Part shown: positions 3,371-22,956 of the stretch, one piece after another | Layout of the letters: each line of letters opens with the position of its first letter | Position numbering within the stretch: position 1 is the first letter of the stretch | Assembly (NCBI GenBank): GCA_965212015.1 | Contig: OZ243037.1 | Location: 1,152,001-1,216,000, forward strand | Length of the DNA: 64,000 nucleotides | From: Cenarchaeum sp. | Lineage (GTDB): Archaea; Thermoproteota; Nitrososphaeria; Nitrososphaerales; Nitrosopumilaceae | Direction: 5' to 3' | Program-made: the position numbers and the translations under genes | The notes under the pieces: generated by a model | The model's database searches: none | What the model saw: only the letters and a program-made list of their open reading frames with translations | Told to the model about the DNA's origin: nothing

Positions 3371-6300
3371 CTATACTACGTTGATGTCTATTACGGCTTT
3401 GGGTGACAGTGCAGTCGGGTTGGATACTGATTCCCAGGCAAACATTGTTACTGTGTATGCTCCAGGTGTGTCAGGTATCCATGACTGTGCTGCGTTTTGT
3501 GAACCGCCAGCTGGCATTACGCCTCCGGACCAATCAAGTTTGATGATCACTCCGTTTGCGTCTTCGATCTGTACCAAATATGCATAGTCCTGCTCCTTGT
3601 CCTGTCCGCTGATCAAGTCCGCCTCAAAGTGCACCCGTGTATCCACGGATATGCTAGCTAGGGGGTTTCCTTGGCCGTCGACTACTCGCGGATCGTTGAT
3701 TACCAGGCGCTCAAGAGGCGGTACTATTGTACCGATGAACGTTGTTCCCGTAATCTGTACCTCATCCGAAGGTGAGTAAGTCCTGTCAGGCAGGTCTGGG
3801 AGAGTATTGTCGTCATATTCAGCCTTTACCGTGTCGCCTTCAGCTACTCTGAGCCTGTGGCCAGATGAGTCCTCGGTTAGCGAGAATGTCACCGTGCCCT
3901 CAAATATACCAGTTGCCTGGTTGGTCTCAGTTACAGTGAGGTCAATGCCTCCGCTGTCACTATCAGAGCGAACGTCAATGTCGAAGTTGTCTACCGATTC
4001 TGGATTCCAGTTCATGTCCGGATCAATCACACGTACAGTGCCTGTTGATGATGCAGCATAGCTAGCTTCTAGCCAGCTTACCTCACCTAGGTTCCATCTG
4101 ATCAATGAAGAGCCGATTACGGTCTCATCCTCTGAGAACTCAAAGGACACCGTTACACCGTCGTCTTCAGTGGCAGACAAGAGACCATTAGTCGGGCCCT
4201 GACCGTCAGACTCGTAGTTTGCCGGTATGGCAAATCCAACGTCCTGTCCTAGGTCGTTGCCCGTAGTCGTGTCGCCGTCAGCATCGTGCAAGAAACCGGT
4301 GAGTATTACCTCTCCGGTAAATATGCCCGTGTCGGGACCCGTCTCAGTCAGCCTGTATTGGTCAAGATCGCCCTCACCAGTGTTTACCCTTACCACGTCC
4401 TCTCTCGTTTCTCCGATTTCATCAATCAGATCGCTGTCAAAGTTGTGGTCAGGTGCAAGTATGGTGATATACACCTTGTCAGTCCAGGTATACACCTTTT
4501 GATCGAGCTCTATCGTGGCACCAAAGTTGGATGTGAGTACTGTAAGATTTACATCTTCGTCCTCGTCACCAACATAGTTTGCGCCAGATGGACCCCAATC
4601 GGTGTATTCTAGCTCGATTGCCTCGCCTCTGTCCAGATTGCTTTCGCTTAGTGCTTCAGGGATTTCAATGACAACCTGGAAGATTCCAGTGCTGTCACCT
4701 GTCTCTCTAAATGCACTTGGTTCTGGATCGAATGCTGTGTCTTGACCACCTAGTATACCCATGGTCAGTGCGGCATCGTCTGAATCCCATTCAATGAGAT
4801 CCAGTGTATAGGTCTCGCGCTCGTCATTTTCAAGGTCAAGATCTGGCTCGATTAGAGTCAGAATCATGTCCCCTCCAATAATGTACGCGGACTTGTCGGA
4901 TTGTAGTATGCCGTTTCTGAGGTCGAATGTAGCTGAATCAGTCACTGTGTTTTCTTCACCTGATGCGTCTGTTGGATCCGTGTATATCACTGTGAGAATG
5001 TCGCCTTGCAGGATACAATAGTTGCGCTCTGTATCACCGTTGAATCGGACAGTAGAGTTGCCTCTTGAACCGTCTGCTACATTCTCAAAGTTGTCAGTGT
5101 TCGGACAGTTGTTGCTAGACGGGCCGTCAGTATACCTGACAGGCAGATCCAGCTCGAATATTCCGGCATCCGGTGCAATCTCTGCAATCGGGCCGAATTC
5201 GTACTGGTTGTCTTCAGGTTCTGTGCCTACTGTGAGGTGGGTACCGCTACTTGCTTCTCCACCTGCAGTTGCCAGGATTACAGTCTCAGAGCCTCTAGAC
5301 ACGGAAACTTCTATCGGTCCTCGTGCTCCGTCTGCAATCATGTCCTCACCACTGCCAGATATGTCATAGTCCGGATCGTTGACCCTTACGTGTATGGTCA
5401 GATCACCGTTTTGGATTGTCTCGTCTGGCTGTATGCCGTCACTGCCTATACTGGCTACATGAACCGGGAATATGGCTCTTCCACTAGGGCCAGAACCACT
5501 CTCGGGATCAAAGTCGGCAACTCCGTCAGTCTCACCAACAGTACCGAATGGTACCGGGTAGACAGTTTTGTCAAAGCTGACCGAACCAGTGTTTGCGCGG
5601 ATTCCAGCAGAATCACCTACTTCGATGATTTCGCCGGACAGATCTCTATAGTCGACATAGTTTACCTCCAAGTCTACACCAGTAGTGGATACATATCCAG
5701 GAATTTCTTCAGTTCCAGATGTGTCTGCTGGACAGTACACTGTAGGTATCTGGAATGTTCCTGTGAATATTCCTGAAGCCTTTGTGGTCTCGGCCATGGT
5801 AAATCCAGTGGCTCCAAGTCCATCGTCTGCAGGATTATCTCCGAAGCATCCATTACGCTCAGCACTTGTCCATAGTTCGTCGTCGAAGGTGATATCAAGC
5901 AGTCGTCCAAGATTGTCAGCTGGATTATCATCGGTTCCAACCACATCAACATTAAAGGATGTGGTACCGCTAGTATTACGTACCACAGTAAAGATATCCC
6001 TTACCTCCACATCTGTGTTCAGATCCGGATCCTCAAGGGTAACTGTTACCGTGTCGGCAATCTTGTAGTTGTTTGAGTCAAACGATACTACGCCTGAATG
6101 AGTCGGTGCTTCTACCTGGTCTGCGACCTGTGTAGCCACGCCATCCTCGCCAAAGTCAAGATAGTTGATTCTCACTGAATCCTCGTCTGTAAGATCATTG
6201 TGGATGATCATTTCTGCATCATCGCTGATCACGTCCAGATTCGGAATGTAAGAATTAGGATCGTTGACATTGAGCTGGTTTAGCATCAGGAACTCTAGGG

Positions 6301-8374
6301 AGCCTATAAAGACTCCGGTATTGTCCCCGCTCTCTTCTAGCTCCAGCCTATAGATGGCATTGTTGACCCTGTCACCAGGAGCAACACCGTCGCCTATTTG
6401 GCCATAGCTAAAGAAGTCGATTGCTATAGGATACGTGGCTGCAGGAATGTCCTCACCAAAGTCAACAATCTCTACAGTTAGATCTTCACCCAGGAATCCT
6501 CTTTCTACAATAGTCAAGTCGGTTTCATCTAGTAGAACCAAGCCCTGAAGTCCTTCAGATGTGGCAATATCAACCTCAGTGCCGTTATTAACACTAAATG
6601 TTAGAGTGCCAATATCACTGTCAACATCTCCAAATGATCGTAGATCATAGTTCAGGAAGTGATGTACCGTATCGTTGGATGCTCCATCAAAGAAGTCCCT
6701 CAATACCGTGCCATCACCTTTGTCGAATGTGAGTGTTAGAGGAGCGGTTACAGTGATAGAGCTATTAACTACGATCAACATCCTGTCACTAAAGGCTTGA
6801 ACTTCAGAGCTTCCAATATTAGCAGCATTACCGCCTTCAATTGTAACTCCAGTCGTACCGGCCAGTGTCACTGGGCTTCCAATTCTAACGCTTGGAATCA
6901 GTGGGACGTTTGAATCAAATAGATCCAGGTCTTCGTCGACCAGGCTGTTTCTGTTGATGTCGCCGTCTGTGAGTGTGATTGATATCTGTTCACCAGAGTT
7001 CCATGCATCACCTACTCCGTCTTTGCCAAATTCTATGCTACCAAAGTAATTGGTAACAAAGATTGACTTTTCTGAGAGGTTGTAATCGATGCTTGCACTG
7101 ACTCCTCTAGGCGCATCAGCATGAACAACAATGTTGGCTATATCGCCTTCATCGGTGTTTTTGAATATGCCAGAGTTTGACTGAGTTTCAGTTATGGTCA
7201 CTGGAGCAGCACCTGCATCAATGTCTGTTATGGCTGTACCATCATCTAGTGTGACTGTCGCCGTTGCAAGTTCAGCTATACCATTTTCTACATCACTGCT
7301 CAGTACCTGTTCTGTATTGTCTTGTAGCTGAAGTAGATCACCAAATTCATGGTTCTCCTTGTTCGGATACAGTATCAAAGCTCCATTGTCGTCAAAGTTC
7401 AGGGTACTAAGAGGTATGTCTGGATGATCACCTGCACCTCCTTGTGATTCGCCATTCTCATCAAATACTTGGTATCTGGTTTCAGTGGCGCCAAAGGGTG
7501 TCGAAAATGTCCAAGAGTCTTCGTCAGTTGGGTCGATGTTTAGCTGTAGATCAGTTATGGTAAAATGAACTGATGCTCCAGGTGGATAGTCCTCCCTGTC
7601 TAGTGACAGGCCGGCATATCCATCGGCATCATCCAAGTATACCAAATCAATCTGTTGTTCTCCGCCACCCTTGTTGTACTTTACCTCGATGGTTCCATCT
7701 ACGGCAAAGTTAAACACTTGAATGGCAGGAAATTCGTTGGGAGCTAGACCGACTTGTCCAAGAGTTACTCCACCATTTCCTTCGGCGGTAGGTGTTTTTT
7801 GTTCTCTGAGAACATTTTGGTTGTCATTTCTGTCATCAGGTAATGATCCAGTTGGAGTACCAGTAGCTTCGTTACCACATGTTGCATCTTCAAAGTATAC
7901 ACCATCGGTATCAGAATAACTGGTAAGACTAACAGCAGCATCAGTGGCATCATCATCAGTGGCAGCATCAGCAGATCCTTCAGTACAGAATGTACCAAAG
8001 TCCAATGATTCACCATTAATACCAATAAGATCAGCAGCTTCTGCCATACTTGCTTCTGCAAAGTACGCATACCAGTTGCCGTCAGTTGCCTGTACCATCT
8101 GTATGTCTTGTCCATTGACCGTCACGTCTGGTTCGGATTCTAGCGAGTCCACATCCTTCAAGTCAGGATCGTTGACTACAATCTCGACGACCATAGGGCC
8201 GGCAATGCTGTTGTCAAACAGTGAGTTTTCCGCAGAAACGAACAGGTTTTCGGTAGCTGCATGTGCGACCGGCGTGCCAGGAATGGCAAACGTCAGTCCA
8301 CCTGCAACCATTATCGTCATTATTATTAGACTAGTTGTTTTTCGTATTTTGTCGTTATCTATTTTGTTTTTCAT
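3371..8374 (-). CDS. slaA: S-layer protein (SlaA, Nitrosopumilus Nmar_1547-like), 1667 aa
   Basis: Signal peptide TSLIIMTIMVAGGLTFAIPG, mature start NLFVSAENSLFDN, very acidic, repeated Ig-like units with ETxxxxGIF motifs, C-terminus FAWESVSNPTALSP. Confidence 0.9.
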   Translation of the reverse strand: MKNKIDNDKIRKTTSLIIMTIMVAGGLTFAIPGTPVAHAATENLFVSAENSLFDNSIAGPMVVEIVVNDPDLKDVDSLESEPDVTVNGQDIQMVQATDGNWYAYFAEASMAEAADLIGINGESLDFGTFCTEGSADAATDDDATDAAVSLTSYSDTDGVYFEDATCGNEATGTPTGSLPDDRNDNQNVLREQKTPTAEGNGGVTLGQVGLAPNEFPAIQVFNFAVDGTIEVKYNKGGGEQQIDLVYLDDADGYAGLSLDREDYPPGASVHFTITDLQLNIDPTDEDSWTFSTPFGATETRYQVFDENGESQGGAGDHPDIPLSTLNFDDNGALILYPNKENHEFGDLLQLQDNTEQVLSSDVENGIAELATATVTLDDGTAITDIDAGAAPVTITETQSNSGIFKNTDEGDIANIVVHADAPRGVSASIDYNLSEKSIFVTNYFGSIEFGKDGVGDAWNSGEQISITLTDGDINRNSLVDEDLDLFDSNVPLIPSVRIGSPVTLAGTTGVTIEGGNAANIGSSEVQAFSDRMLIVVNSSITVTAPLTLTFDKGDGTVLRDFFDGASNDTVHHFLNYDLRSFGDVDSDIGTLTFSVNNGTEVDIATSEGLQGLVLLDETDLTIVERGFLGEDLTVEIVDFGEDIPAATYPIAIDFFSYGQIGDGVAPGDRVNNAIYRLELEESGDNTGVFIGSLEFLMLNQLNVNDPNSYIPNLDVISDDAEMIIHNDLTDEDSVRINYLDFGEDGVATQVADQVEAPTHSGVVSFDSNNYKIADTVTVTLEDPDLNTDVEVRDIFTVVRNTSGTTSFNVDVVGTDDNPADNLGRLLDITFDDELWTSAERNGCFGDNPADDGLGATGFTMAETTKASGIFTGTFQIPTVYCPADTSGTEEIPGYVSTTGVDLEVNYVDYRDLSGEIIEVGDSAGIRANTGSVSFDKTVYPVPFGTVGETDGVADFDPESGSGPSGRAIFPVHVASIGSDGIQPDETIQNGDLTIHVRVNDPDYDISGSGEDMIADGARGPIEVSVSRGSETVILATAGGEASSGTHLTVGTEPEDNQYEFGPIAEIAPDAGIFELDLPVRYTDGPSSNNCPNTDNFENVADGSRGNSTVRFNGDTERNYCILQGDILTVIYTDPTDASGEENTVTDSATFDLRNGILQSDKSAYIIGGDMILTLIEPDLDLENDERETYTLDLIEWDSDDAALTMGILGGQDTAFDPEPSAFRETGDSTGIFQVVIEIPEALSESNLDRGEAIELEYTDWGPSGANYVGDEDEDVNLTVLTSNFGATIELDQKVYTWTDKVYITILAPDHNFDSDLIDEIGETREDVVRVNTGEGDLDQYRLTETGPDTGIFTGEVILTGFLHDADGDTTTGNDLGQDVGFAIPANYESDGQGPTNGLLSATEDDGVTVSFEFSEDETVIGSSLIRWNLGEVSWLEASYAASSTGTVRVIDPDMNWNPESVDNFDIDVRSDSDSGGIDLTVTETNQATGIFEGTVTFSLTEDSSGHRLRVAEGDTVKAEYDDNTLPDLPDRTYSPSDEVQITGTTFIGTIVPPLERLVINDPRVVDGQGNPLASISVDTRVHFEADLISGQDKEQDYAYLVQIEDANGVIIKLDWSGGVMPAGGSQNAAQSWIPDTPGAYTVTMFAWESVSNPTALSPKAVIDINVV

Positions 8375-9068: not shown

Positions 9069-9626
9069 ATGTATTACCGTGACAAAACCGGAATAATCCT
9101 CGACAATGCCTTGGCATACGGCATGCATTTTATGCATTGTTTGGCCTTTGTAAATCGGAATTATACACATGCAGCCAAAGATCCAACCCTAGACTTTGAT
9201 CATGCCGCTACAACCCGCAAATCCGCAAGCATCCCGCCCCAAAATACAAGGCTCATCCTGTCTGACGCTGCCAAGGAACGACTTCGAATATACCGCGCAA
9301 AATACTATAAGGCAAACAAGGAAACGATCTTGGCTCAAAACAGAAAATATCAAGCAAAATTAAAGACCGGTAGAAAACCCAAGGGAAAACCCGGCAGACC
9401 CAAAAGAAAGCCGGGTAGAAAACCAGGTAGAAAGTCCCAAACAAAGACGAGGAAAACCGTGGGAAATCCAGTGCAAGATCCAAGGGACCTACCAAGGCAC
9501 AGCTCAGGAAATACCATCGGGAATATGCGAGGAAATACTATAAAGCAAACAGGGCAAAGATTCTCTCCAAAAATAGAAAACGAAAACGTTAAAGCTAAAG
9601 GTAAAACCAAAAATAAGACACTGTAG
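9069..9626 (+). CDS. Basic K/R-rich hypothetical protein with AT-hook-like GRP/GRK repeats; true start probably downstream
   Basis: AKERLRIYRAKYYKANKETILAQNRKY resembles segments of the next ORF, followed by GRKPKGKPGRPKRKPGRKPGRK. Confidence 0.55.
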   Translation: MYYRDKTGIILDNALAYGMHFMHCLAFVNRNYTHAAKDPTLDFDHAATTRKSASIPPQNTRLILSDAAKERLRIYRAKYYKANKETILAQNRKYQAKLKTGRKPKGKPGRPKRKPGRKPGRKSQTKTRKTVGNPVQDPRDLPRHSSGNTIGNMRGNTIKQTGQRFSPKIENENVKAKGKTKNKTL

Positions 9627-9735: not shown

Positions 9736-10545
9736 TTGGCAAAATCTATAGAATCGGCCAAGAAAAGGCTGGAGAGGCTAAGGCGCCAGAGGGAGTACTA
9801 TCGGGAAAAGATACTGGCCAAAAACAGGAAAAGCCCGGCAAAATCGGGGGCAAAAAATACCCGTAAAAAATCCAAGACAAAATCCGGCGTATCGGCCAAG
9901 GAAAGGCTCAGAAAATACCAGAAGGAATACTATTGGGAAAATCGGGAAAAAATCCAGGCCCGACGACAAAGATATCGGAAACAACGGAAGGAATACACCC
10001 AGAGGCCGGAGGTAAAGAAAAAATTCCAGAAATACCGGCTAGAATATTATCAGAGGCCGGAGGTGAGGGAGCGGCGAAAGGAATACATGAGAAAATACAA
10101 CCGGCGGCCGGAGGCAAGGGAGCGGCAGAAAGAATACGACCAGAGGCCGGAGGTGAGGAAGCATAAAAGAGAATACCAACAGAGGCCGGAGGTGAGGAAG
10201 CATAAAAGAGAATACCAACAGAGGCCGGAAATAAAGAGAAAACAGAAGGAATACACCCAGAGGCCGGAGGTAAGGGAGCGGCGAAAGGAATACCGTCAGA
10301 GGCCGGAGGTAAAGAAAAAATTCCAGAAATACCGGCTAGAATATTATCAGAGGCCGGAGGTAAAGGAGCGGCAAAAGGAATACAGCCAGAGGCCGGAAAT
10401 AAAGAGAAAACAGAAGGAATACACCCAGAGGCCGGAGGTGAGGGCGCGTAAAAGAAGATACGATCAGAGGTCGAAGGTAAAGGTACGTAAAAGACATTTA
10501 GCAAAGACCAGTGGGAAATCCAAGACAAAGGCCGATAGGAAATAA
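9736..10545 (+). CDS. Extremely basic tandem-repeat protein with ~12 EYxQRPE(V/I) units (13 or 17 aa)
   Basis: 269-aa ORF with TTG start; DNA repeats of 39/51 bp preserve the frame around a conserved CAGAGGCCGGA core. Confidence 0.7.
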   Translation: MAKSIESAKKRLERLRRQREYYREKILAKNRKSPAKSGAKNTRKKSKTKSGVSAKERLRKYQKEYYWENREKIQARRQRYRKQRKEYTQRPEVKKKFQKYRLEYYQRPEVRERRKEYMRKYNRRPEARERQKEYDQRPEVRKHKREYQQRPEVRKHKREYQQRPEIKRKQKEYTQRPEVRERRKEYRQRPEVKKKFQKYRLEYYQRPEVKERQKEYSQRPEIKRKQKEYTQRPEVRARKRRYDQRSKVKVRKRHLAKTSGKSKTKADRK

Positions 10546-10592
10546 TACCAGTCGGATGGCCCTTATGATTGGGACATGCCCCCTTTGATCAT

Positions 10593-10708
10593 GTGACCTG
10601 TACGGGCTTACGGGCCTTGGTGACCTGTACGGGCTTACGGGCCTTGGTGACCTGTACGGGCTTACGGGCCTTGGTGACCTGTACGGGCTTACGGGCCTTG
10701 GTGACCTG
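10593..10708 (+). repeat. 27-bp tandem repeat GTGACCTGTACGGGCTTACGGGCCTTG x4
   Basis: Four exact copies read directly, plus a partial fifth. Confidence 0.95.
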
Positions 10709-10922
10709 GGAGTTGTGTATGTGATTTGTATCCTGTCCGGGCCGGGACTCCGGCCCGGGATGGTTCTGGGCAAGAGGGCCGGCCCTGCCGGCCCGATGAT
10801 GTGATGGGATAGGGCTCCCGTCAGGGAGCCTTGGGCGATGACCTTGAAGTCCGAATGAGTTCGTCGTTGTGGGGATTGTGAGGTAACTGCGAGCTGGAAA
10901 TCCGCGCGCGGGGCTTGAAAAA

Positions 10923-11121
10923 TGGCACTTTTGCAGTCAAAAAAATGCAGTCAAAAGCATTTTTGCAGTCAATTTTTGGCATTTTTGCAGTCAGTAAAAA
11001 GATGCCAAAAGCATTTTTGCAGTCAAAAAAATGCAGTCAAAAGCATTTTTGCAGTCAGTAAAAAGATGCCAAAAGCATTTTTGCAGTCAAAAAAATGCAG
11101 TCAAAAGCGCTTTTGCGGTCG
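10923..11121 (+). repeat. TGCAGTCA / A-tract array (9 exact cores plus 1 variant; 64-bp higher-order duplication)
   Basis: Cores spaced 14, 18, 22, 32, 14, 18, 32, 14, 18 bp. Confidence 0.9.
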
Positions 11122-11241
11122 AAATGGATCCGGATGACAGGACGGCTCAAAAGCCAGAGCAGATAACACAGAGTCGGCTGGCCATCAAGATTGAGAGACT
11201 CCTCTTGGTGATGTGGGACCTGTACGGGCTTACGGGCCTTG

Positions 11242-11365
11242 GTGACCTGTACTGGCCTGTGGGGGCCTTGGTGACCTGTACTGGCCTGTGGGGGCCTTGG
11301 TGACCTGTACTGGCCTGTGGGGGCCTTGGTGACCTGTACTGGCCTGTGGGGGCCTTGGTGACCTG
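11242..11365 (+). repeat. 29-bp tandem repeat GTGACCTGTACTGGCCTGTGGGGGCCTTG x4
   Basis: Four exact copies, preceded by one nearly complete copy of the 27-bp variant. Confidence 0.95.
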
Positions 11366-12060
11366 TGGGGTTGTGTATGTGATTTGTATCCTGTCCGGGC
11401 CGGGACTCCGGCCCGGGATGGTTCTGGGCAAGAGGGCCGGCTCTGCCGGCCCGATGATGTGATGGGATAGGGCTCCCGTCAGGGAGCCTTGGGCGATGAC
11501 CTTGAAGTCCGAATGAGTTCGTCGTTGTGGGGATTGTGAGGTAACTGCGAGCTGGAAATCCGCGCGCGGGGCTTGAAAAACGACCCTTTTGTGGTCGGTA
11601 ATCGACCTCTTTGTGATCGAAACAGGCTGGGATGACGGAACGGCTCAGGAGTCGGAGTAGATAACAGAGTGGGCTGGCCTTCAAGATTGAGAGACTCTCC
11701 TTGGTCATGTGGCCTGTGGCCCTTGGTGGCTTGTGGCCGGCCTTGGTGACTTGTGGGAGTCTAGACTTTGTCCCAGATGGTTTTGGGAGAGGGCCGGCTC
11801 TGCCGGCCTTGGTGTATGGTTCGGCCGGAGACTCTGGCCTATATGATTCCGGGCAAGAGGGCCGAACCTGTGACCCGGGATGGTCCTTGGCTAGTCGGGC
11901 TGGCCTACAGCCCGACGGTGTGGTGGAACGGGGCTCCCGTCAGGGAGCCCCGGGGAAAGACGTTGAGATTACTGAATCGTGGTTCGTTGTTGGGGATTTA
12001 TGAGGTAATGCGAACTCGTCTGTCGTAAATGCGCATACGTGAGGGATATCAGTCATATTT

Positions 12061-12210
12061 CTTTGTGCACATTGTGCACAACCATTGTGCTCTTTGTGCA
12101 CAAAAAAATGTGCATATTGTGCACATTGTGCACAACCATTGTGCATTTTGTGCACAAAAAAAGTGCTTTTTGTGCTCTTTGTGCACATTGTGCATTTTGT
12201 GCACACAGAA
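12061..12210. repeat. Array of palindromic TGTGCACA cores in 9-mers, 54-bp period
   Basis: Eight exact TGTGCACA (12064, 12073, 12095, 12118, 12127, 12149, 12180, 12198) plus degenerate copies. Confidence 0.9.
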
Positions 12211-12227
12211 AGTGCACTTGGTGTACC

Positions 12228-12460
12228 CAGTGTACGCAAAAAGGTGTATTGCGTACACTCAGTGTACCGTCACGTAGCACTCAGTGTACGCAAAAAGGTG
12301 TATTGCGTACACTCAGTGTACCGTCACGTAGCACTCAGTGTACGCAAAAAGGTGTATTGCGTACACTCAGTGTACCGTCACGTAGCACTCAGTGTACGCA
12401 AAAAGGTGTATTGCGTACACTCAGTGTACCGTCACGTAGCACTCAGTGTACGCAAAAAGG
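12228..12460. repeat. 54-bp tandem repeat x4 plus a partial copy, each unit with an 11-bp inverted repeat
   Basis: Unit CAGTGTACGCAAAAAGGTGTATTGCGTACACTCAGTGTACCGTCACGTAGCACT contains AGTGTACGCAA-N9-TTGCGTACACT. Confidence 0.95.
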
Positions 12461-12712
12461 GTACACTTGGTACATTTGGTGTACCCATACGTAGCACTTG
12501 GTGCACTCAGTGTACGCAAAATGGGTGCACTTGGTGCACTTGGTGTACCCATACGTAGCACTTGGTGCACTTTGTGTTACCTCACGTAGCTCTTTGAGCT
12601 ATCCCCACGTAGCTCTTTATGCTCTTTATGCTACCTCACGTAGCTCTTTGAGCTATCCCCACGTAGCTCTTTATGCTCTTTATGCTACCTCACGTAGCTC
12701 TTTGTGCTTTTT
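12461..12712. repeat. Continuation of the 9-mer satellite: a 64-bp-period pair, then a 54-bp repeat x2 (CCTCACGTAGCTCTTTGAGCTATCCCCACGTAGCTCTTTATGCTCTTTATGCTA)
   Basis: Read directly from the sequence. Confidence 0.9.
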
Positions 12713-12946
12713 TACCCAAAGTTGGACTGTGGCATTTGGGCATGACAATCAAAGACCCAAATTAGAAGCAGATTCCATGCGATCAAACCAACGTCTGCCT
12801 GATCTCAAAGAACGACTCAATAATTCCCAAAGCCCCATATTGGCAAGATCCAAGATATTGACCAAGGAAAGACTCGGAAAATACCGCTAGAGGCTCATGT
12901 GGGAATTGTGCTTTTTCTGCAATTTGCGCTAGCAGACCCTCTGACA

Positions 12947-14359
12947 TTAGGATTCCACCTTTTGTGTGATTGGCCGGCGCACAAGGAATCTGCCGTCGGA
13001 GAGCTCCTTGTCCATATCCCACCCCCGGGCCGAATGCTCCAGCAGGCTCTGCTCATCCTTTACAATCTTGCTCTCAAAGGGGTTACGGCCGACAGGCTCT
13101 TCCTGCTTTATCCTGTCTGGGGTCTGCTCTGATTTTGGGTCCTGAGCAAGCACGGGCGGGTCCACCCCGTACATTGTCGCCTGCTGGCGCCACATCTCGA
13201 GCAGCATCTCCTTTTTGTCCATGCCCGCACCAGAGGAGTCGGTGGCCAGAAACATCTGGCTTTGTGTGTATGCGCGCCTCATATCCTCCATCATCTGCTC
13301 TGTCAGCATTCCCTTGTTGGTCGTATATCGCGCCTCCATGTCGCCCTTGTGGCCCATAAAGAACTGCCTGTATGCGTGCGTCATGCACCCGTGGCTTTCG
13401 GCCATGAGCATCTGCGTGTCAAAGTACGCCCTCAGGGCGTACGGCCGGATCTTCATCACGCTCCAGATAATCGGCCGTATGCTAGACGATATGTTTGTCG
13501 TGGTCAGATACAGGTTTGAGTCGTCCTTGCGCCTTCCCTTTATCCTGTATCCATGTCCAACCGCAATCAGTGCAGAGTCCGGCTTCAATATCTCCCCGCG
13601 CGCTATGCGCGCTTGAAGATATCCCAGGACATACTTGCAACCCTGCTCGCTCAGAAACGTCATGTACTTGTTGCGCGTCTTGCTCAGATTCGCCCGTACT
13701 ATTATTCTGGCAGGCATTTTTTCAAATCTAACCCTATCGCCGTCGATTACAAGCTCTGGCATGTCACCAAGGCACAGACCGTCGTCCCTCTCTACGGTGC
13801 CCATAACCTGCGGACGTATTCCGGAGAACGCCATCAGGCTGATTATGACCCTGTCACGCGGGGCTCCGGCATCAAGAATTTGCCGCAGCTGATCCTGATC
13901 CGGAACCTTTTCGTCCTGGATTCTTACCGGCACGTCCTCGTTTCTGATCTTTATCTTGCGCTTTATCTCTATATGGTTGTACTCTAGCCAAGACTTTATC
14001 GCCTTTATCATGCCGCCGATGTATCCCGGCGCATATTTCTGTCCCTCCATCCACGAGACGTGATCAAGCAGTATGTTTTCTACTTGCATTGGATCCTCCC
14101 GTCCAGTCTTTACAAGCTGTTCGGGTGATACTTTGATCCTGTCGCAGAAAAGATTCAGTCGCCGCAACTTTACGCCTGCGCTTAACACGCTTGAGCGGCG
14201 AATGTTATCATACCATCTGCGTATGTCATCATTATTCAATAATAGTTTAGGGGGTTCGGTCGCCATTCTGTTCCAGCTTCGGATCTTTGATTTGGATGTA
14301 ATCGTATTTGTACTTGGCGCATTTTGATCAACGTTGATACCTCTATGTTGTTGCATCAT
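12947..14359 (-). mobile_element. Tyrosine recombinase / site-specific integrase (start possibly at 14266)
   Basis: Catalytic motifs FSGIRPQ (Arg I), KTRNKY (Lys), RPYALRAYF (YxxR in place of HxxR) and FMGHKGDMEARY (His/Tyr); lies directly downstream of the tRNA-Lys 3' end. Confidence 0.92.
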
Positions 14360-14579: not shown

Positions 14580-14656
14580 TGGCGGGTCTAAGGGGATTCG
14601 AACCCCTGACAGCCGGATTAAGAGTCCGGTGCTCTACCTGGCTGAGCCATAGACCC
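14580..14656 (-). tRNA. tRNA-Lys(CTT), encoded CCA
   Basis: GGGTCTA...CCGGA-CT-CTT-AA-TCCGG...GTTCGAATC...TAGACCC-G-CCA cloverleaf. Confidence 0.97.
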
Positions 14657-22881: not shown

Positions 22882-22956
22882 GGACTCGTAGCACAGTCAG
22901 GACAGTGCGGGCGGCTTCGGACCGCCAGGTCGAGGGATCGAAGCCCTCCGAGCCCT
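22882..22956 (+). tRNA. tRNA-Arg(TCG)
   Basis: GGCGG-CT-TCG-GA-CCGCC anticodon arm; D and T arms present; one acceptor-stem mismatch. Confidence 0.85.

Follow-up and report, generated by a model that had tools for sequence, protein, structure and literature searches.

The window analyzed here is a stretch of 64,000 nucleotides from the genome of a Cenarchaeum sp. (contig OZ243037.1, positions 1,152,001 to 1,216,000 of the forward strand). The genome that contains it, referred to as G000, is a single contig of 1.76 Mb. Near the start of the window, a 2.4-kb gap is bounded by a basic repeat-protein gene on the + strand and a convergent gene for a protein of 470 amino acids (aa) on the – strand, after which comes a tRNA-Lys gene. 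The gap is occupied by three hairpin-rich units, and these are orphan stacked copies that abut a predicted tyrosine recombinase gene next to the tRNA-Lys gene. Based on the sequence comparisons described below, we consider the unit to be a real, conserved and lineage-restricted non-coding element of archaeal integrated elements with a defined genomic context, and the repeated block is probably part of a site for the control or maintenance of these elements. Each unit opens with a lead that ends in ..TTGRTCATGTGG and continues, in order, with a short, perfect tandem array, GC stem-loops (three to four per window unit and two to five across units) separated by G+T-rich, C-poor linkers, a box-bearing tail, and AT-rich iterons. 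The box has the consensus TAAyTGCGAr and takes the form TAACTGCGAG or TAATGCGAA in the window (at 10884, 11542 and 12006), and the iteron words vary by unit (GCAGTCA; CGACC..GGTCG; GTGCAC and GTACGC). An earlier, sequence-only reading of this DNA described the hairpins and overlooked the larger unit of tandem repeats, box and iterons to which they belong in integrated mobile elements. The features of the region are as follows, with tandem arrays as reported by the program TRF.

9736–10545, + strand: basic repeat-protein gene (open reading frame), 269 aa, 13-aa QRPEV-type repeats, K+R 39%, upstream of and co-oriented with the units.
10593–10708, + strand: perfect 27-bp tandem array, 4.3 copies, 100% matches, heading unit 1; repeat family D8.
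10709–10905, + strand: unit 1 hairpin module, with stem-loops at 10737–10758, 10776–10794 and 10811–10832, then a G+T-rich tail.
10884–10893, + strand: unit 1 box, TAACTGCGAG; the box is also found 5' of AbrB-type genes in the related genomes G086, G097, G032 and G130.
10925–11124, + strand: unit 1 iterons with a 32/64-nt period and the word GCAGTCA; repeat family D4; this word type also follows the module copy a648b.
11125–11233, + strand: linker, homologous by blastn to the final 20 nt of the basic gene together with the lead before unit 1.
11234–11366, + strand: perfect 29-bp tandem array, 4.6 copies, 100% matches, heading unit 2.
11367–11563, + strand: unit 2 hairpin module, with stem-loops at 11395–11416, 11434–11452 and 11469–11490 and a box at 11542–11551; repeat family D3, 97%.
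11581–11619, + strand: unit 2 iterons, two CGACC..GGTCG-type words read from the sequence; this word type also follows copies a649 and a947.
11709–11756, + strand: 20-bp tandem array, 2.6 copies, heading unit 3.
11760–12023, + strand: unit 3 module, diverged, with stem-loops at 11790–11810, 11823–11839, 11894–11916 and 11929–11952 and the box TAATGCGAA at 12006–12014.
12063–12712, + strand: unit 3 iterons with 54-, 31- and 64-nt periods and the words GTGCAC, GTACGC and TAGCTC, running up to the 3' end of the recombinase gene; repeat families D2, D5, D7 and D11.
12947–14359, – strand: divergent tyrosine recombinase gene, 470 aa, convergent with the units, predicted from a fold match and invariant catalytic residues.
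14580–14656, – strand: tRNA-Lys(CTT), the probable integration site, with its 3' end repeated (17–20 nt) at genome positions 1136461 and 1145544.

The eight stem-loops quoted in the sequence-only reading all lie where it had placed them. Units 1 and 2 share CCGGGCCGG-gact-CCGGCCCGG (at 10737 and 11395), GGGCCGGC-cct-GCCGGCCC (at 10776, with the tct-loop version at 11434) and AGGGCTCCC-gtca-GGGAGCCTT (at 10811 and 11469), and unit 3 carries GTCGGGCTG-gccta-CAGCCCGAC at 11894 and CGGGGCTCCC-gtca-GGGAGCCCCG at 11929. GGCT-caaa-AGCC at 11144 and CGGCT-cagg-AGTCG at 11641 have stems of 4–5 bp, which is too short for judgement. Units 1 and 2 are 97% identical over 230 nt (10709–10938 versus 11367–11596), and when 10712–10922 is compared at an offset of 658 the single difference does indeed fall in a loop, that of the second hairpin (C/T at 10784). 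Perfect hairpins with a stem of at least 8 bp and a loop of 3–5 nt occur six times in 10541–12015, whereas 500 shuffled sequences contained 0.04 on average and never more than 1, so the hairpins are beyond chance. Pairing is maintained despite sequence change, as had been proposed, and the compensatory changes described for the last hairpin (A-T to G-C and G-T to G-C) are correct. The proposed C-G to T-A compensation, on the other hand, does not stand because it compares the different hairpin types GGGCCGGC and GTCGGGCTG. Both types are present side by side in copy a324, which means that they represent paralogous units and not one and the same stem. The description of the block as a repeated hairpin element of no recognized family also holds: it is real, and it has no Rfam match. 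A gathering-score scan of the window with Rfam returned only three tRNAs, and at E-values up to 10 the 46 matches in 10400–12900 were mostly to AT-rich iterons and all fell well short of the gathering score, the best reaching 31.3 versus 51 bits.

The element had been called a three-copy one, which is accurate within the window but not genome-wide, where nhmmer gave 16 hits and a covariance model based on 12 G000 copies gave 14. These 14–16 copies are spread over eight loci, with mobile-element or defence genes as neighbors at all copies examined. At the second locus (646.8–652.4 kb of the genome) the whole 2.4-kb gap is colinear with that of the window; the locus also includes a basic gene, five iteron-bearing modules and a gene for a 65%-identical recombinase. 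The last three modules of that locus are colinear with the three of the window at 85–86% identity, and the unit 3 iteron arrays are colinear with 650.3–650.9 kb. Copy a756 is part of a 19.7-kb element that has an 18-nt tRNA-Asp repeat as its boundaries and carries a canonical PF00589 integrase, copy a947 is 445 nt from a tRNA-Val gene, and truncated modules are found at 159 kb, 947 kb and 1108 kb. In the region linking units 1 and 2, 11148–11252 matches 10526–10630 of the window at 78.7% over 108 nt (blastn, E 7.7e-15). Because linkers are thus homologous to the 3' end of the basic gene and its lead, we interpret the window units as whole cassettes that were stacked and later decayed, losing their genes.

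The distribution of the module among relatives is narrow. BLAST found it in none of 60 relatives, and the covariance model gave one marginal hit (G104, another genus) among 150 other genomes of the family and none in the four genomes of the same genus. A search of G104 with its own copy then revealed 12 diverged modules with the same part order, adjoining recombinase homologues. Between these units, small AbrB genes and fragments of an ATPase C-terminus are retained, and these gene remnants again point to stacked decaying cassettes. The same search found no modules in three further genomes of the G104 genus, and G086, which belongs to that genus, shows the same layout next to its ATPase genes. 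A degenerate pattern of the tail had no matches in metagenome contigs or in viral contigs. The exact 18-nt pattern of the last hairpin matched 87 stretches in genome contigs, nearly all bacterial and none related-looking, and these were taken as chance matches to GC palindromes. Contigs from sequencing runs X1–X4 cover the modules in pieces of 98–410 nt, mixed with paralogous copies.

What a complete cassette looks like can be seen at copies a324 and a756. There, a gene for a 125–128-aa AbrB/MazE-domain protein with a conserved C-terminal tail comes after the iterons on the same strand, and this gene is convergent with one for a 1036–1038-aa P-loop ATPase with VirD4/TraG-like domains. The AbrB/MazE profile PF04014 matched seven of eight scanned proteins, two of them above the cut-off of 24.7 bits: the orthologues from G104 and G097 score 38.9 and 34.9 bits, and the G000 proteins of a324 and a756 fall below it at 23.1 and 21.5 bits. 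The 1036-aa ATPase of a324 matched PF10412 (TrwB_AAD_bind) at 25.5 bits (cut-off 20.5), and its a756 paralogue is 70.8% identical to it. An actin-like ATPase gene lies 5' of the ATPase gene in both cassettes (PF06723, 53.3 bits at a756 and 35.1 bits at a324), and none is present in the window's locus. The trio is carried by integrated elements at 320–330 kb and 750–765 kb of the genome, where the VirD4/TraG-like protein has an extra C-terminal domain and the AbrB/MazE-type gene is the convergent one.

Comparison with other genomes of the family separates a core from an addition. At the nine loci with a convergent AbrB gene in G086, G097, G032 and G130, the box is present exactly once per locus (9/9), on the unit strand and 168–264 nt 5' of the AbrB gene, and none was found on the opposite strand. 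Repeats precede the AbrB gene in G000, G104, G086, G097, G032 and G130, and in the AT-rich relatives short tandem repeats lie immediately 5' of its start. These AT-rich relatives keep the box, the iterons and the AbrB gene and have no GC hairpins. The conserved core thus consists of the box, the iterons and the AbrB gene, and only G000, G104 and G086 show the stem-loop block as an addition to it. The part order is the same in two genera at 68–72% ATPase identity, and the box is conserved in at least three genera. The unit 1 iteron word ATGCAGTCAAA is also found between the box and the AbrB gene in G130 (locus L181), a genome of a different, AT-rich genus, so it may be that iteron words are shared across genera. 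The orientation of the unit is fixed relative to the box, the iterons, the AbrB gene and the upstream basic gene. In G086, an open frame upstream of the module, within the first 230 nt of the region inspected at locus L195, encodes perfect 17-aa repeats (KSAGSGLFGSPSKGRSK) and is followed by a long 14-nt tandem array, which parallels the basic repeat gene and tandem array of G000. Two other ideas about the box were discarded. It is unlikely to be a TATA box, since the form TATAATTGCGAAC is that of AT-rich genomes, and GC-rich ones have GAGGTAACTGCGAG or GGTGAATGCGAGG instead, and a short open reading frame starting from an ATG inside the G104 box was rejected because the ATG is lost in most G000 copies.

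From this anatomy, copy number, synteny and cross-genus conservation, we infer binding events and a function for the unit as follows. The three window units would be decayed, stacked non-coding leaders of a cassette from tRNA-integrating elements, and the leader would be a cis-acting maintenance region involved in segregation or DNA handling; we give about equal weight to this reading being right and being wrong. The full cassette would consist of a basic repeat-protein gene, tandem repeats, two to five stem-loops, the box TAAyTGCGAr, iterons and an AbrB/MazE-type gene, the last being convergent with the VirD4/TraG-like and actin-like ATPase genes. The iterons would be sites for the AbrB-type protein, probably its operator and possibly a centromere-like site for the actin-like ATPase, and the box would be a sequence-specific site. 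The stem-loop block is proposed to be accessory, and we consider a role as extruded hairpins in DNA or as a boundary element likelier than one as an independent RNA. The cassettes in the window would have lost their protein genes, leaving three leaders against a recombinase gene. We lean toward a role at the DNA level because the pairing is nearly perfect, there is little G·U, and the unit is tied to genes for DNA-binding and DNA-handling proteins.

Several observations weigh against a maintenance leader of this kind. The hairpins are dispensable for the core cassette, being absent in the AT-rich relatives, and no part of the model is less constrained than their role. The window units have no AbrB, ATPase or actin-like gene alongside and must either act in trans or be relics. 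Only two to three AbrB-like genes were found in G000 versus at least eight types of iteron word, and the gene order is unlike that of ParMRC-type partition loci. A predicted complex of the AbrB-type and actin-like proteins does lend the model support, but its score of 0.47 (best control 0.14) is weak: of the comparison sets, 58 of 80 solved complexes passed the mark used, as did 2 of 110 mismatched pairs, and at scores of 0.60 or less the only ones reaching it were seven of the 80 solved complexes plus both passing mismatches. Between runs at least 34% of contacts agreed, and the partner had a predicted local distance difference test (pLDDT) score of at least 54. The remaining points concern the strand. 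The + strand of the module has a G content of 0.36, a C content of 0.19–0.23 and a G+T content of 0.59–0.63 in G000 and G104, one-sided changes in aligned stems are mostly G·U, and several copies in G104 and G086, though not most G000 copies, have a T-rich tract after the last hairpin. Together these features fit better with a role at the RNA level than with one in double-stranded DNA.

The strongest competitor is a structured RNA from the + strand, either a small RNA of about 150–230 nt or an intercistronic or 3' untranslated region stem-loop cluster that stabilizes or terminates the transcript of the basic gene. The sequence-only reading had arrived at a single-stranded + strand structure from the G-T pairs, and had described it as co-oriented with the basic-protein gene. 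The latter observation was borne out: the block is co-oriented with an upstream basic gene at three G000 loci, and an upstream repeat-encoding frame is also present in G086. The G-T pairs, however, do not carry the argument. Among 552 pairs in 74 distinct helices from G000, G104 and G086, 530 (96%) are Watson-Crick pairs, and the non-Watson-Crick ones include only seven internal G·U and two A·C, a difference that is not significant (two-sided binomial p ~0.18). In the aligned hairpins proper there are about ten G·U versus about three A·C cells, many of which were inherited together and are not independent. Moreover, because the + strand is G+T-rich, G·T pairs arise from composition alone. The same can be said of folding stability. 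Against composition-preserving shuffles, the + strand (–85 kcal/mol) has a z-score of –2.18 and the – strand (–67.4 kcal/mol) the stronger one of –3.94, so the extra stability of the + strand is compositional.

Covariation gave a mixed answer. Stem sequences differ between hairpin types and between genomes (CCGGGCCGG, GGGCCGGC, GTCGGGCTG and GGGGCTCCC in G000; CTGGGACG and GGGGCCC in G104; GGGCCGCC and GCGGGGCC in G086) while pairing is kept, from which it follows that structure and not sequence is common to the units. Inner stems, for their part, are unchanged between colinear paralogues that are only 85–86% identical overall. In alignment A1 (12 G000 copies), pairing is 95.8%, a value reached by none of 500 shuffles, and the covariation was reached by 11 of 500; in alignment A3 (nine G104 copies), pairing is 93.8% and was reached by 241 of 500 shuffles, the covariation by 188 of 500. 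Covariation was thus modestly in excess of shuffles in G000 and not in G104. The second hairpin of G104 does offer a pair (pair 2) that reads U-A in four copies, U·G in two and C-G in two, and the G104 modules have, some 100 nt upstream, AT-rich stretches resembling TTTTAAAA, which, like the T-rich tracts past the last hairpin, would suit a transcript. On the other hand, most G000 copies lack a T-run after the last hairpin, G000 units have no recognizable promoter, and, as already noted, nothing in Rfam matches them. A putative tail helix (GTTCGT with GCGAGC, from RNAalifold) was set aside because its core pairs are invariant, its extension varies only weakly, and AT-rich relatives in which the box is kept lack its 5' arm. 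The conclusion that a + strand RNA is made thus does not follow from the present data. Given the G+T-rich strand and the terminator-like tracts, the RNA explanation is still alive, and we regard it as possible, if doubtful. A likeness of GATGATGTGATGG to a C/D box was noted as a candidate idea only, as were G-quadruplex potential and a type III toxin-antitoxin-like repeat RNA.

A broader version of the single-strand idea would make the stem-loops and the TAAyTGCGAr box together a new archaeal mobile-element signal, serving either as a small structured RNA that controls the cassette or as the entry or loading site of a relaxase-less VirD4-like translocase with an AbrB-type adaptor. We think this rather unlikely. 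If it were true, the unit would be the first defined cis-acting transfer or segregation site for these archaeal elements, and stacked orphan units would let a gene-poor element borrow the machinery of several helpers.

It is also conceivable that the region has no function and that its palindromes and arrays are by-products of repeat-prone, recombining non-coding DNA in mobile elements, kept perfect by template switching or gene conversion and not by selection. The 100% perfection of many arrays implies slippage in the very recent past, and the units are visibly decaying in their stacks: in the colinear partner a650, four unpaired positions disrupt one of the unit 3 hairpins, three other copies are truncated as described above, and related cassettes do without hairpins altogether. 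Such an origin would not account for a part order kept in two genera at the ATPase divergence given above, for a box conserved across at least three genera, or for inner stems that stay the same while the paralogues around them drift, and we judge it unlikely.

Another proposal is that hairpins and box form a signal in single-stranded DNA, such as an oriT-like nick region or a single-strand-initiation (ssi)-like priming site, working with the VirD4-like ATPase during transfer or replication of the element. The VirD4/TraG-like gene adjoins complete cassettes, conservation of structure over sequence with near-perfect pairing is what DNA hairpins would show, and a strictly oriented box of 9–10 nt lies downstream of the hairpins. 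The box also resembles the GGTAAGTGCG-type nick region of IncQ plasmids. A type IV coupling protein, identified by PF10412, is encoded next to the a324 cassette, although none adjoins the window's own units. The two relaxase families tried, PF03389 (MobA_MobL) and PF03432 (Relaxase), have no matches in G000, nor does Rep_trans (PF02486), the sole Rep family tried, and no VirB4 or pilus genes were seen adjoining cassettes. The AT-rich relatives, moreover, have the same ATPase and lack the hairpins. In passages of a paper on thaumarchaeal conjugative elements (PMC6563490), relaxases are reported to have gone undetected in these elements, and archaeal conjugation is described as possibly moving double-stranded DNA. 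We therefore consider a nicking or priming signal quite improbable.

Finally, a small selfish repeat spreading alone, such as a MITE (miniature inverted-repeat transposable element), a palindrome akin to REP (repetitive extragenic palindromic) sequences and bacterial interspersed mosaic elements (BIMEs), or an IS200/IS605-type end, is highly improbable: the unit is indeed multi-copy, short, GC-rich, palindromic and non-coding in location, but no terminal inverted repeats flank it (the sole inverted pair, I12, is formed by the palindromic hairpins of units 1 and 2 themselves), the copies have longer flanks in common and differ in how they are truncated, mobile-element or defence genes surround or adjoin every copy examined, the BLAST and covariance-model searches reached only one further genome, and the Y1 (HUH) transposase profile PF01797 has no match in G000 (the control was positive in 6 of 14 reference genomes).

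The genes on either side of the block were also examined. The 269-aa basic protein has no match in Pfam, PHROG or NCBIfam. A search found 302 homologues of it in bacteria and archaea, some of them fused to GIY-YIG, HNH, Endonuclease_7, sigma-70 or zinc-finger domains, and these fusions suggest that the repeat of the family may bind DNA. Very basic proteins whose 13-aa tandem repeats (QRPEVKERRKEY-like) reflect 39-nt repeats in the DNA are specified by 9736–10545 and also by 9069–9626 of the window, and paralogues occur at 226 kb, 325 kb, 647 kb, 881 kb, 1146 kb and 1722 kb of the genome; those at 325–326 kb and 646.8–647.8 kb lie 5' of modules. The 470-aa protein has no Pfam hit, scores 25.1 bits against NCBIfam NF040815 (XerA; cut-off 220), and has no relatives in metagenome or viral contig collections. 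Its AlphaFold2 model (25 homologues, pLDDT 76.9) matched XerA (5hxy, E 2.3e-7), IntI (2a3v) and Cre in Foldseek at E-values of 2e-7 to 1e-4, and R182, K227, Y307, R310, H337 and Y345 are invariant in 25 sequences. The protein is thus predicted to be a very divergent tyrosine recombinase, identified by fold and invariant catalytic residues alone. Homologues were found in 44 of 151 family genomes, a tally that takes in one unpublished genome (G101) on which no other result depends, and in none of the four genomes of the same genus.

The tRNA-Lys 3' end (window 14580–14599, genome 1166580–1166599) recurs at two upstream sites, with lengths of 17 and 20 nt. The pattern is suggestive of a tandem pair of integrated elements measuring about 9 kb and 21 kb, and probably one or two integrated elements end at the tRNA-Lys gene. 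Module copies at genome positions 1134202 and 1144039 are close to the repeats. No likeness of the hairpins to a tRNA or att site was seen in a comparison with tRNA-Lys. The presumed elements encode two giant, very acidic proteins, one of 1667 aa (window 3371–8374, – strand), for which a Pfam scan gave no match, and one of 1761 aa (locus L144, 4421–9706, – strand). The first 3000 nt of the window have a GC content of 0.33–0.35 versus 0.51 for the genome, and the genes of this low-GC island, which are an ATPase gene crossing the window start, a methyltransferase gene and one for a DUF4760 protein, look like defence or cargo genes. An aa3-type oxidase gene is nearby. ARAGORN reported a tRNA-Arg(TCG) at 22882–22956 of the window that is missing from the Rfam gathering-score list, as well as a tRNA of undetermined type at genome 779312–779404 with a four-letter anticodon readout (tcca), which may contain an intron.

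A literature search, together with passages of PMC6563490, turned up no description of the unit; the per-element supplements of that paper may bear on the point. The integrated elements of these archaea have been catalogued by their genes, and their cis-acting DNA, including origins, centromeres, transfer sites and regulatory RNAs, is essentially unknown. What is now defined is a conserved, oriented non-coding unit, made up of the box, iterons and, in one lineage, stem-loops, that is tied to the AbrB-type, VirD4-like and actin-like trio; the ATPase of the trio is found in 18 of 151 genomes of the family and 8 of 27 genera. This provides concrete DNA sites and proteins with which the maintenance or movement of these elements could be studied. 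It also offers an explanation for the long, seemingly empty, repeat-rich gaps beside recombinase genes, which would be stacks of decayed cassette leaders.

Each known system with which we compared the unit shares some features with it, yet for none of them does the unit show all the defining ones. The REP and BIME sequences of bacteria (abstracts of PMC3733652, PMC3184786) are likewise short GC-rich palindromes clustered in extragenic DNA, but our unit has about 15 copies and not hundreds, is confined to mobile elements, keeps a fixed orientation to the box and iterons, and comes with no RAYT that we could find. Integron attC arrays also place a tyrosine recombinase beside an array of structured units, and IntI is among the fold matches of the recombinase. 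Here, however, it is the 3' end of the recombinase gene that the units adjoin, they have perfect stems of 7–10 bp with loops of 3–5 nt where attC has one long imperfect hairpin, and the recombinase model matches XerA and Cre no less well than IntI. Archaeal Borg elements, too, are archaeal mobile elements with 100%-perfect tandem repeats between genes and inside a gene encoding repeat peptides; unlike theirs, the repeats described here go with a conserved cassette of hairpins, box and AbrB gene, in elements that are small and integrated. The oriV of IncQ plasmids combines iterons with a GC-rich part and hairpin priming signals, and the IncQ origin and oriT resemble the unit in having iterons beside hairpins that act as structures and a short oriented box after the hairpins. 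The difference is that no replication initiator, primase or relaxase of known families was found here, with two relaxase families and Rep_trans tried, and that the hairpins are several, variable and only 7–10 bp long. Compared with the centromere and operator iterons of ParMRC-like systems, the present cassette has an adaptor of AbrB/MazE fold and not ribbon-helix-helix, another gene order with a 1036-aa VirD4-like ATPase in between, GC stem-loops and a box upstream, and an archaeal host in which the element is integrated. It nevertheless shares with those systems tandem repeats in front of the gene for a small DNA-binding adaptor, a conserved C-terminal tail on that adaptor, an actin-like ATPase in the same cassette, and a weakly supported predicted contact between the two proteins.

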